A stretch of 45,080 bases of DNA. It comes from Chloroflexota bacterium (GTDB lineage Bacteria; Chloroflexota; Limnocylindria; QHBO01). The stretch covers positions 1 through 45,080 of the forward strand of contig JADLBB010000227.1 of assembly GCA_020848055.1 (NCBI GenBank), read 5' to 3'. Position numbers and translations under genes: made by a program. The stretch's first letter is position 1; the number at the start of each line of letters is the position of its first letter. Shown one piece after another: positions 4,755 through 45,080 of this stretch. The notes beneath the pieces are model-generated. The model saw only the letters and a program-made list of their open reading frames with translations. It was not told the origin of the DNA and searched no databases.

Positions 4755-4983
4755 CCATGGCCTCGACCAGGCGGTCCAGCCCGTCTGGCTCGTCGACCAC
4801 GGCCCGCAGGTCGTCCCCGGGCGGGCCCGCGCCCATGCTCAGCCATGGGCCGATGGCCGCCCCGACGTCAGCGATCAGCGGACCCAGCGGCCGGTGGGCG
4901 TCGACCAGCAGGCGGGCGGGGGTGGTGAGTCGGTGACGTTCGATCCGGGCGGCGAGGCGCCTTGCCGCCTCGGGCGCCGTCAC
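4714..4983 (-). CDS. small hypothetical protein (89 aa)
   Basis: GTG 4983..4981 overlaps the TGA 4982..4980 of the macro-domain gene (GTGA). High GC3. No recognised motif. Confidence 0.5.
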   Translation of the reverse strand: MTAPEAARRLAARIERHRLTTPARLLVDAHRPLGPLIADVGAAIGPWLSMGAGPPGDDLRAVVDEPDGLDRLVEAMDAARDGTPDAIPG

Positions 4984-5510
4984 CGCACGCCGGCCCCGGT
5001 ATCGGAGGCCCTGACCGCTTCTCGCAGCGCGCTGACCTCGGTGGCCTGCATCACCGCCAGCACGACCGACTCGATCGGCGTGTCGACGGCTCCAGCGCGA
5101 AGGGCCGGCACCACGACTGCGGCCGCCTCGTCGGGCGTGAACGCGCCGGTCTCGGTGCCCAGCAGCGCCATGGCGATCCTGCGCAGTTGCAGCGGCTCGG
5201 CGAACGCCAGCGCCGAGCGGACGGCCTGGGCCAGGACTCCGGGGTCGGCCACGCGATCGTGGCCCACCGCCACCGCATGGATCACGTAGGGCGCGGGTAG
5301 CATGCCGCCGGTGGTCACGACCGCCGAGCCGGGTGGAACCGGGGCCTGGTCGATGGCGGCTCGTTCGATCTCGATGCCTCCCCGGCGCTTCACCGCAGCC
5401 GCGGGGCCGGCCGTCATGAACAGTGACTCCGACCCGGCGATCACGATCGCGTCTACCTCGAGCTGCGCGATATCGCCCTGCCAGACGTCCATCTCGATTC
5501 GATCTGCCAT
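4980..5510 (-). CDS. macro-domain-like protein (degenerate ADP-ribose-binding fold)
   Basis: Track ORF 4980..5654 trimmed to the ATG at 5510..5508, with GGAGC upstream. The sequence MADRIEMDVWQGDIAQLEVDAIVIAGSESL...VVTTGG...YVIHAV...LLGTETGAF follows the macro-domain pattern (GDIT..DAIVNAAN...GGGV...VIHAVGP...ISTG). The NAAN and GGGVD motifs are replaced by IAGS and TAGPAAAV. Confidence 0.6.
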   Translation of the reverse strand: MADRIEMDVWQGDIAQLEVDAIVIAGSESLFMTAGPAAAVKRRGGIEIERAAIDQAPVPPGSAVVTTGGMLPAPYVIHAVAVGHDRVADPGVLAQAVRSALAFAEPLQLRRIAMALLGTETGAFTPDEAAAVVVPALRAGAVDTPIESVVLAVMQATEVSALREAVRASDTGAGVR

Positions 5511-5541
5511 TGCTCCGTGCTCGCTCCGCGACCGCCGAACG

Positions 5542-35599: not shown

Positions 35600-40051
<4,452 letters not shown>

Positions 40052-40058
40052 GTGCGCG

Positions 40059-43538
<3,480 letters not shown>

Positions 43539-43587
43539 TCAGTACTCCTGGAAGAAGGCATGGTGAGGCGCGGACACGCGAACGAGG

Positions 43588-43617
43588 AGTGTATAGCAAC
43601 CCCGGGCGCTTCGTCAA
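43588..43617 (-). promoter_or_regulatory. candidate internal promoter for rpoBC (TTGACG-18 nt-TACACT, or 16 nt-TATACA)
   Basis: The minus strand reads GGTTGACGAAGCGCCCGGGGTTGCTATACACTCC, about 50 nt upstream of the rpoB ATG. The -35 sits in the loop/3' arm of the hairpin CGCTTCG-GTTGA-CGAAGCG (43607..43625). Confidence 0.5.
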
Positions 43618-43670
43618 CCGAAGCGGTTCTGAGGTATTAGGTCATGGCCCCGGCCCGATGTGCTCCGGGG

Positions 43671-43813
43671 GCACGCATGGGCCAAGCGAGGATCTCGCCG
43701 CGGCTGTTCCATGGCCACCCCGTGCCACCCTGGCACAAGCCGGGCACGCAGAGCCGCGCATCAGGCGCTGCCAGCCGCCTGCTTCTCCGATGCGTGCTCC
43801 CCCGGCACGCGCG
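43671..43813. repeat. 143-nt structured direct repeat, copy A (rplL-rpoB spacer)
   Basis: Aligns without gaps to 43906..44048. I count 113/143 identities, and the last 42 nt are identical. Flanked by an imperfect inverted repeat, 43660..43678 against 43790..43808. Confidence 0.85.
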
Positions 43814-43852
43814 GCGCTTGCTCCCGGCACCACTCACATCTCGTCCAGACCC

Positions 43853-43892
43853 CCGTTGATTCCAAGGGCACTCCGTTGATTCCGAGAGCAGC
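43853..43892. repeat. two tandem 20-nt direct repeats sharing CCGTTGATTCC
   Basis: ccgttgattccaagggcact followed by ccgttgattccgagagcagc (16/20 identical). A locally AT-richer island between the two 143-nt copies. Confidence 0.8.
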
Positions 43893-43905
43893 TGTTGCCC
43901 CGCAG

Positions 43906-44048
43906 GCATGCATCGGCCAAGCAGAGATCCGGAGGACCCGACTCCATGGCTGCCTTGTGCGGCCACCGCACAAACCGGGCACGCCGAACCGCGCACAAGG
44001 CGCTGACAGCCGCCTGCTTCTCCGATGCGTGCTCCCCCGGCACGCGCG
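43906..44048. repeat. 143-nt structured direct repeat, copy B
   Basis: See copy A. The offset between copies is exactly 235 nt. Confidence 0.85.
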
Positions 44049-44080
44049 AGAACCGGCCGCGCGAACTCGCAGGGAAGGAC

Positions 44081-44110
44081 AGGGCCGGCCCCGCGGACGG
44101 GGCCGGCCCT
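44081..44110 (-). terminator. 13-bp perfect GC hairpin just downstream of rplL (terminator/attenuator candidate)
   Basis: AGGGCCGGCCCCG-(4 nt)-CGGGGCCGGCCCT, 22 nt after the rplL stop. On the minus strand it is followed by GTCCTTCCCT, which is pyrimidine-rich but has no clean U-run. Confidence 0.5.
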
Positions 44111-44132
44111 GGCGCCGGGGTCGAGCGGCGCG

Positions 44133-44534
44133 CTACTTGATCTCGACGGTCGCCCCGGCCTCGGCCAGCTTCTCCTTGACCTGCTCGGCCTCCTCCTTGG
44201 CCACGCCCTCCTTGACCGCCTTGGGGGCTGCGTCGACGAGGTCCTTGGCCTCCTTGAGGCCCAGGCCGGTGAGCTCGCGCACGGCCTTGATCACGAGGAT
44301 CTTGTTCGCGCCGACGTCGGTCAGCACCGCGTCGAACTCGGTCTGCTCCTCTTCGGCCGCGGCGGCCGCGCCGTCGCCGCCACCAGCGACCGGGGCAGCC
44401 GCAACTGCCACCGGGGCGGCGGCGGTCACGCCGTAGCGCTCCTCGAAGGCCTTCACCAGCTCGCTCAGCTCGAGGACGGTCATGCTGTCGATCGCCTCGA
44501 GGATCGCGTCCTTGTCCAGGGTCTTGGTCGCCAT
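44133..44534 (-). CDS. rplL: 50S ribosomal protein L7/L12
   Basis: 133 aa. Ala-rich hinge ...[16 protein letters not shown]..., then ...[22 protein letters not shown].... AAGGAGAA RBS. Confidence 0.97.
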
Positions 44535-44570
44535 CTGAATCGGTTCTCCTTGTTCGTTGCGTCGGGGCGG

Positions 44571-45080
44571 CTAGGCCGCGGACTCGTTGGTTCGTTTCTT
44601 GTCGGCGACCGCGGCGAGCACACCAACCAGGTTGCGCAGGTTGGCTGCCAGCACGCCGGCCATGCCGGTCAGGGGTGCGGCCATCCCGCCGGCGAGCCTG
44701 CCGAGCAGGACGTCGCGCGACGGGAGAGTCGCCAGTCGGTTGAGCGCGGCGGCGTCGATAGCAGTGCTGCCGAGCATCCCGCCGCGCACCGACACGACGC
44801 GCGAGTACGGACGCAGGGCATCGGCGACGGCCTTGGCCATGGCGGCCTCGTCGCCGTCGATCGTGGCCAGTGCGGTCGGCCCGTCGAGCATCGGCTTGAG
44901 CTCGGAGCGGCCGGCCTCGTCGGCGGCGATCTTGAGCAGGCGGTTCTTGGCCACGGTCAGGCGGACGCCGCCGTCACGCAGCGTGCGACGCACCTGCTGC
45001 ATATCGGCGACCTTGAGGCCGCGGTAGTCGGCCACGGCGATGGCCGAGCTCGAGCGGAGCAGCTCCGCCAGCTCGGTCAC
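44571..45080 (-). CDS. rplJ: 50S ribosomal protein L10 (N-terminus cut by window end)
   Basis: ...AELLRSSSAIAVADYRGLKVADMQQVRRTLR..GV.L.V.KN.L.... Confidence 0.93.
   Translation of the reverse strand: MTELAELLRSSSAIAVADYRGLKVADMQQVRRTLRDGGVRLTVAKNRLLKIAADEAGRSELKPMLDGPTALATIDGDEAAMAKAVADALRPYSRVVSVRGGMLGSTAIDAAALNRLATLPSRDVLLGRLAGGMAAPLTGMAGVLAANLRNLVGVLAAVADKKRTNESAA

Follow-up and report, generated by a model that had tools for sequence, protein, structure and literature searches.

REPs are 20-40 nt long, and REPIN doublets usually span no more than ~100 nt. Their copy numbers range from tens to hundreds, and the GTAG-type tetranucleotide that flanks a REP is recognised by RAYT. Correia and ERIC elements give rise to hairpins that are cut by RNase III or change transcript stability. 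At the junction between ribosomal-protein and RNA polymerase genes, Escherichia coli relies largely on read-through from upstream promoters to express rpoBC. The E. coli rplL-rpoB spacer holds a transcription attenuator (PMC4670729). The features of MITE-type elements have been reviewed (PMC3184786, PMC10969869); a prokaryotic MITE family may be represented in a genome by as few as 1-22 copies, and RNase III cleaves the long hairpins of Correia-containing transcripts (PMC10969869).

We analyzed the same junction in a stretch of 45,080 nt of Chloroflexota DNA (hereafter, the window), whose right end carries on the minus strand rplJ (44571-45080), rplL (44133-44534), rpoB (40059-43538) and rpoC (35600-40051). 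The spacer between rplL and rpoB, both of which are on the minus strand, spans 43539-44132 and was re-measured at 594 nt, in agreement with the initial annotation, which had described it as holding two direct repeats. On the operon strand, the order is rplL, a GC hairpin, repeat unit B, a linker, repeat unit A and the rpoB promoter. The features of the region are the following:

40059-43538, minus strand: rpoB, the gene downstream of the spacer (open reading frame; homologues with RNA_pol_Rpb2 domains)
43539-43587, minus strand: rpoB 5' leader, almost invariant, with an AGGAG Shine-Dalgarno sequence (multi-lineage alignment)
43588-43617, minus strand: predicted rpoBC promoter, sigma-70-type (promoter scan; conserved in six lineages whatever the upstream gene)
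43660-43687, no strand: left arm of the terminal inverted repeat (TIR) of unit A (inverted-repeat scan and pairing test)
43661-43813, no strand: repeat unit A, ~153 bp (self-alignment, nhmmer and covariance-model self-hits)
43722-43736, no strand: central hairpin of unit A, GTGCCA-CCC-TGGCAC (the sole helix with double changes relative to unit B)
43781-43808, no strand: right TIR arm of unit A (pairing test; identity to the arm of unit B)
43814-43895, no strand: linker between the units, 82 nt, unrelated to either flank
43896-43924, no strand: left TIR arm of unit B (inverted-repeat scan and pairing test)
43896-44048, no strand: repeat unit B, ~153 bp (self-alignment, nhmmer and covariance-model self-hits)
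43957-43971, no strand: central hairpin of unit B, GTGCGG-CCA-CCGCAC (sequence and fold comparison)
44014-44043, no strand: right TIR arm of unit B (inside the 42 nt identical to unit A)
44080-44111, minus strand: terminator-like hairpin after rplL (14-bp perfect GC stem, 4-nt loop, no U tract)
44133-44534, minus strand: rplL, encoding ribosomal protein L7/L12, the gene upstream of the spacer (open reading frame; Pfam Ribosomal_L12_N and Ribosomal_L12)

The two direct repeats were reproduced as first described: the segments 43671-43813 and 43906-44048 lie at a constant offset of 235 nt, align with 0 indels and are identical at 113 of 143 positions, including all of the final 42 nt. The left border, on the other hand, had been placed too far inside. 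Homology reaches ~10 nt further left, to 43661 and 43896, and the true units are ~153 nt rather than 143 nt long. The divergence between the copies is mosaic, with identities of 81%, 52%, 85% and 100% along four successive segments of the unit, and a difference-free run of 42 nt (44007-44048 in unit B) has a probability of ~2e-4 if the 33 differences are spread at random. The borders of the units are sharp, with no similarity among the 82-nt linker and the outer flanks, which argues against a simple tandem duplication of a larger segment, a candidate that we rejected. A coding origin was likewise discarded, because the differences between the copies fall into the three codon phases as 9/10/14, with no coding periodicity, and the six-frame translation of both units has no match among 5.8 billion predicted proteins. 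ARAGORN returned no tRNA or tmRNA.

The linker contains a direct repeat of its own, composed of two copies of CCGTTGATTCCRAGRGCA at 43853-43870 and 43873-43890 with a 20-nt period. The motif CCGTTGATTCC(A/G)AG(G/A)GCA occurs there as two direct copies within 43853-43890. This repeat could be a protein-binding direct repeat or the product of chance. More generally, the whole block might be protein-binding DNA, either an upstream regulatory or architectural region of the rpoBC promoter or a pair of att-like recombination sites, in which case the identical 42-nt segments and the 20-nt-period linker motif would be the candidate binding sites. The two 42-nt segments share one orientation at an offset of 235 nt, with the CCGTTGATTCC repeat between them, and the block lies near the promoter, 43 nt from the -35 hexamer; however, the relatives described below have the same promoter and leader with no such upstream region, and no recombinase or regulator gene is adjacent. 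We consider this explanation very unlikely.

The same arrangement of units is found in independent assemblies (L001/L035, L009 and L003, from JGI 3300009868, JGI 3300009873 and ENA ERZ795017), and the repeats are therefore real sequence. Since it recurs in at least three assemblies made independently of one another (two JGI samples, one ENA sample), an assembly artifact is ruled out. Sample SRR17843467 likewise contains the species. The same-species contig L035 differs from the window at 9 positions over 4979 nt; five of the nine differences are clustered within 54 nt (44078-44131) around the terminator-like hairpin of rplL and none occurs in the two repeat units. The linker of the strain contig L003 lacks 5 nt and has one substitution near the CCGTTGATTCC repeats. 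Another same-species contig, from Logan (L002, 2582-2611), ends exactly 30 nt into the 42-nt segment that is common to both units. A k=31 de Bruijn assembly that meets two local copies should stop at such a point in unit B, which illustrates how short-read assemblies fragment at this marker-gene locus through repeats of this kind.

Both units are palindromic at their ends. The terminal inverted repeats of unit A match at 26 of 33 aligned columns (p<0.0005 versus shuffles) and those of unit B at 16 of 19 (84% complementary at 43906-43924, p<0.001 versus shuffles). The significance was assessed with 2000 shuffles, all or nearly all of which score below both units, and with 3000 random 164-nt segments of the window, whose 99th percentile both units exceed. 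The pairing of the unit ends with each other, proposed in the initial annotation, is thus significant in both units, each with p<0.001 versus shuffles. The palindromy of the units was seen again as reverse-strand self-hits with both an nhmmer profile and a covariance model, and the inverted ends fall at the repeat borders. It had also been suggested that the units may switch between this long-range helix and a local hairpin. With the 10 additional nt included in the unit, the local hairpin GCGTGC-N7-GCACGC becomes the outer part of a 28-33-nt terminal inverted repeat; since its bases are then paired to the extended 5' end, nothing in particular calls for a switch, and we dropped this reading.

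The inverted ends bear on a less specific explanation, according to which the block is non-mobile and non-functional debris at an insertion hot spot, where a segment was duplicated locally and partly homogenised by gene conversion, and where the inverted ends and hairpins are incidental to a sequence of 70% GC. The significance of the terminal inverted repeats in both units, by shuffles as well as by random segments, and the sharp repeat borders that coincide with them count against debris; most folding z-scores (see below) are unremarkable, as debris would have it. Taking into account also the comparison with the relatives, we give limited weight to this explanation as a whole.

To what extent the differences between the two copies preserve a structure depends on the measure. 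The change in the central hairpin from GTGCCA-CCC-TGGCAC to GTGCGG-CCA-CCGCAC, with two adjacent pairs replaced on both arms, was verified. RNAalifold finds 2 compensatory pairs between the units on the plus strand and 3 on the minus strand, and the controls, in which one copy was randomly mutated with the same number of changes or at the same positions, average 1.8-2.9. The consensus folding energy is instead better than that of the controls on both strands, with a fraction of 0-0.05 of the controls at least as good. Of the two measures, only the consensus energy beats the controls; the number of compensatory pairs is not above them and is no evidence for a preserved structure. When the 159-nt units are compared with dinucleotide shuffles, the z-scores of the minimum free energy (MFE) are -1.47 and -2.58 on the plus strand and -1.44 and -0.14 on the minus strand, and the MFE z-score of the whole spacer is -0.54.

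Nor do the wobble pairs identify a transcribed strand. According to the initial annotation, G-U pairs appear only when the plus strand is read as RNA. The terminal-helix wobbles (G-T) are indeed on the plus strand, but the two U-G pairs that lengthen copy A's central hairpin from 6 to 9 bp exist on the minus strand only. Because the helices contradict each other, we rejected the assignment of a strand by G-U pairs. Wobbles that are split between strands and equal foldability on both are as expected from a palindrome at the DNA level. Overall, the comparison of the copies, which has low power with two sequences, points to a palindromic element that retains its capacity for hairpins at the duplex level rather than to selection on one-strand RNA. 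The initial observation is largely correct, but the structural significance of the repeats had been overstated, and hairpin-preserving differences between just two GC-rich copies should not be taken as evidence for a riboswitch.

An RNA function deserves nevertheless to be weighed. The pair may be a locally duplicated functional structured RNA, with a multi-hairpin domain and a long terminal helix, that acts on the expression of rplJL and rpoBC; it would be made either on the minus strand, via read-through or from a promoter that escaped recognition, or else as a small RNA (sRNA) of the plus strand, and would work by attenuation, processing or protein binding. The E. coli rplL-rpoB spacer, with its transcription attenuator, is a precedent (PMC4670729). 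In the units themselves, the differences between copies keep the common fold better than random substitutions (0-0.05 of controls), one hairpin has two double changes and reaches 9 bp on the minus strand through U-G pairs, and 42 nt are perfectly kept as opposed to 52% in the internal module. These observations are set against folding z-scores mostly within noise, a compensatory count not above controls and wobbles that point to different strands depending on the helix. Furthermore, there is no Rfam match for the units down to E=10: the search of the whole window at gathering score gave no match and the search of 43400-44700 at E up to 10 returned only noise, nothing of which is meaningful for the units. 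The units are also missing at the same locus in the closest available relatives, they sit after the rplL hairpin and ahead of the conserved rpoB promoter, and no promoter- or terminator-like site flanks them. All considered, a functional RNA of this type is improbable.

The position of the units relative to the signals of the flanking genes is informative in this respect. The predicted rpoBC promoter reads by eye as TTGACG, 16 nt and TATACA preceded by TGc, and by scan as TTGACG-18-TACACT, with its -35 hexamer 43 nt from unit A. A scan for sigma-70-type consensus promoters over 43300-44700 recovers it as the sole promoter-like site, and no terminator-like site adjoins either unit on either strand. 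The promoter core and a leader of ~50 nt are almost invariant in six lineages, in which the 5' DNA of rpoB is 85-88% identical to the window; conservation upstream of rpoB ends abruptly at about -40 in the six-lineage alignment. The genes upstream of rpoB differ among the aligned lineages, being rplL, an AlkZ-like gene on the opposite strand or a gene for a 511-aa protein. The conservation of promoter and leader despite varying upstream genes indicates that rpoBC is an independent transcription unit in the clade. The repeats lie outside the conserved control region of rpoBC, in the gap between two transcription units.

On the minus strand of the window (43539-43625), the conserved promoter core corresponds to CGCTTCrGTTGACGAAGCG ... 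TGnTATACw and the conserved rpoB leader to CCTCGTTCGCGTGTCCGCGCCyCACCATGCCTTCTTCCAGGAGTwCTGA-ATG, with matching promoter and leader stretches at L004 1971-2055, L029 9916-10000, L030 1575-1659 and L031 2100-2184. The leader has no Rfam match and its predicted fold is unremarkable (z +0.6). It may serve rpoBC in this clade as a conserved leader with a translational or autoregulatory function.

A hairpin also occupies the equivalent site after rplL in the sister species L004. Upstream of the rpoB promoter and downstream of the rplL hairpin, the units would be transcribed on the operon strand by read-through only. The first of the explanations put forward in the initial annotation, a duplicated cis-regulatory RNA controlling read-through from rplL to rpoB, finds no support, since the units are absent from the closest available relatives, are upstream of a conserved rpoB promoter and belong to no Rfam family. 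The covariation that such an RNA should display is neither strand-specific nor above chance. The second explanation, a pair of sRNA genes, fares no better, because the sigma-70-type scan and the search for terminators found neither signal flanking either unit on either strand.

We compared the rplL|rpoB junction in related genomes; close homologues bear the source name 'Candidatus Limnocylindria bacterium'. The nearest retrieved lineage is represented by five independent contigs (L004-L008), with an RplL protein 96% identical to that of the window and DNA identities of 91% in rplL and 87.5% in the 5' region of rpoB. Its rplL-rpoB spacer is 150 nt long, contains a hairpin and the promoter and has no trace of the units. 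The units are also absent from the 157-nt spacer of L029, whose RpoB is 90% identical. Other relatives host one to three unrelated genes at the junction (L025, L030 and L031-L033), including a luciferase-like monooxygenase with an FMN reductase and an AlkZ-like protein, a 511-aa protein, a 148-aa open reading frame, and a Dirigent-like protein plus a glycosyltransferase. The coordinates of the junction are 43539-44132 in the window, 587-704 in L025, 1365-1551 in L026 and 1536-1660 in L030.

These short unit-free spacers and whole genes at the junction indicate that the ~440-nt block is a lineage-specific insertion, and that the rplL|rpoB junction is a recurrent insertion site in Limnocylindria-like genomes. 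The presence or absence of the units at the orthologous junction is seen at the level of lineages, between relatives that are ~12% diverged in coding DNA, and at this divergence the 'empty site' of the nearest relative falls short of a clean pre-insertion site. A lineage-specific insertion at a recurrent site is hard to reconcile with a conserved read-through regulator like the E. coli attenuator.

The gain and loss of whole genes at the junction would also be compatible with non-functional debris, as would the lack of conservation upstream of about -40 in the spacers of any lineage and the occurrence of the sequence at this locus only, among the searched sets. However, comparison of the block with the genes inserted in the relatives by tblastx and blastn gave only noise, with no remnant homology. 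A pseudogene remnant of these junction genes was rejected on the same result.

We searched for further copies of the units in several sets of sequences. There is no third copy in the 45-kb window and no copy in 9.5 kb more of same-species sequence (~55 kb in total with L035). In this sequence, ~5 kb upstream of rplL, L035 has a gene-free gap of 588 nt (4944-5532), part of which has the look of several tRNA genes (GGGGTAGCTCAATGGCAGAGC... being one example); the repeat is absent from this gap. Neither the nhmmer profile nor the covariance model R1 found any copy beyond the two units in ~125 kb of related loci. The scan of genome_contigs with an 18-mer returned 11 isolated hits, all in unrelated taxa and none reaching past ~30 nt when extended, which we took as chance; the same holds true for the 4 hits of the 20-mer scan of metagenome_contigs, one of which was checked and lies inside a coding region, and for the 17-mer scan of viral contigs, with non-extending single hits only. 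No copy was detected by blastn in plasmids and phages. The genome and metagenome collections returned not even the known source contigs, and the species is therefore absent from both collections. In the window, the hairpin GCGTGC-N7-GCACGC occurs in the two units only, and a single further match, carrying 1 mismatch, is what chance would give. As MITE families may count 1-22 copies per genome, the lack of a third copy in ~55 kb is not contradictory and is weak evidence.

From these data, the third explanation of the initial annotation, a MITE- or REP-like element with imperfect terminal inverted repeats, is the best fit of the three: the inverted repeats, the non-coding nature, the presence and absence among lineages and the permissive site agree with it. 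No other copy was detected in the sets that we searched. We tentatively interpret the units as a small palindromic repeat of the MITE/ERIC/Correia type, locally duplicated or inserted twice, with a confidence that stays a little short of even. The units are non-coding and, at ~153 bp, fall within the 50-500 bp of MITEs, with terminal inverted repeats at both ends of each unit. Counting for the MITE-like reading are these significant inverted repeats, the small non-coding unit, the sharp borders, the presence and absence among lineages and the insertion-prone site, as well as the lack of Rfam or tRNA matches, the strand-symmetric foldability and the mosaic divergence. On the other side, neither a third copy nor a target-site duplication nor a partner transposase was found. 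With exact ends that are uncertain by a few nt, no target-site duplication is visible in the flanks CCGGCCCGAT and GCGCGGCGCT of unit A or in the flanks GAGAGCAGCT and GCGCGAGAAC of unit B. There is no transposase gene in the neighborhood of the window, and we know of none with matching ends. In addition, two copies in the same orientation 235 nt apart are unlikely as independent random insertions, and the units leave over ~130 nt of the inserted block (linker and flanks).

In the MITE-like reading, two ~153-bp palindromic repeats with imperfect terminal inverted repeats of 20-33 bp form the core of the lineage-specific ~440-bp non-coding block. The element would have arrived by insertion into the one part of the locus where additional DNA is probably without cost, past the hairpin closing the rplJL unit and at a distance of 43 nt from the -35 hexamer of rpoBC, and the second copy may have originated by a second insertion or by local duplication. 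The right-hand 42 nt would then have been kept identical by sequence exchange or gene conversion, or by a constraint on one end, while the internal module diverged to 52% identity. The effect on the host is likely small. Upon read-through past the rplL hairpin, each unit would form a long irregular hairpin with a closing helix of ~20-28 bp, and RNase III cleavage or altered transcript stability would at most reinforce the decoupling of rplJL and rpoBC. A more speculative extension, which we regard as a long shot, is that the palindromic insertion gave birth to a new riboregulator that tunes the synthesis of L7/L12 versus the beta/beta' subunits of RNA polymerase. Transcription that passes the U-less rplL hairpin would yield it on the operon strand, or else it would come from the plus strand; it could act through processing sites, roadblocks or a protein- or RNA polymerase-binding decoy before the rpoBC promoter.

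Under the MITE-like reading, the event is an ordinary one, a palindromic repeat that settled in a permissive gap between two essential transcription units, and the pair of units is useful mainly as a lineage marker of this uncultured Chloroflexota (Limnocylindria-like) bacterium. The more informative part is the rest of the locus, namely the independent rpoBC of the clade with its strikingly invariant promoter and leader, plus a junction that is prone to acquire foreign DNA.

Compared with described systems, the locus recalls the E. coli rplL-rpoB attenuator in that a structured region occupies the same junction and uncouples ribosomal-protein expression from that of RNA polymerase (PMC4670729). 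It departs from it because rpoB has here its own conserved promoter downstream of the units, and because the relatives are devoid of the units and in some cases have unrelated genes at the junction. With REP, BIME and REPIN sequences, the units share GC-rich palindromes that follow an operon terminator in several copies within one intergenic region, and each unit end has its own small palindrome, GCGTGC-N7-GCACGC. None of the REP traits of size, copy number, tetranucleotide or RAYT is seen in the sequence available for this species, however, and in the window the hairpin motif is confined to the two units. The comparison with the ERIC, Correia (NEMIS), bcr1 and RUP families of MITEs has differences too: the units have no demonstrated dispersed copies, target-site duplication or cognate transposase, they are adjacent and in direct orientation, and they bear no sequence similarity to any described family. 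Like the members of these families, the units are non-coding sequences in the range of ~100-170 bp with imperfect terminal inverted repeats of 20-30 bp and a variable internal region, can be folded over their whole length into one long irregular hairpin, lie in an intergenic region beside an operon boundary, and are present in some and absent from other related genomes.
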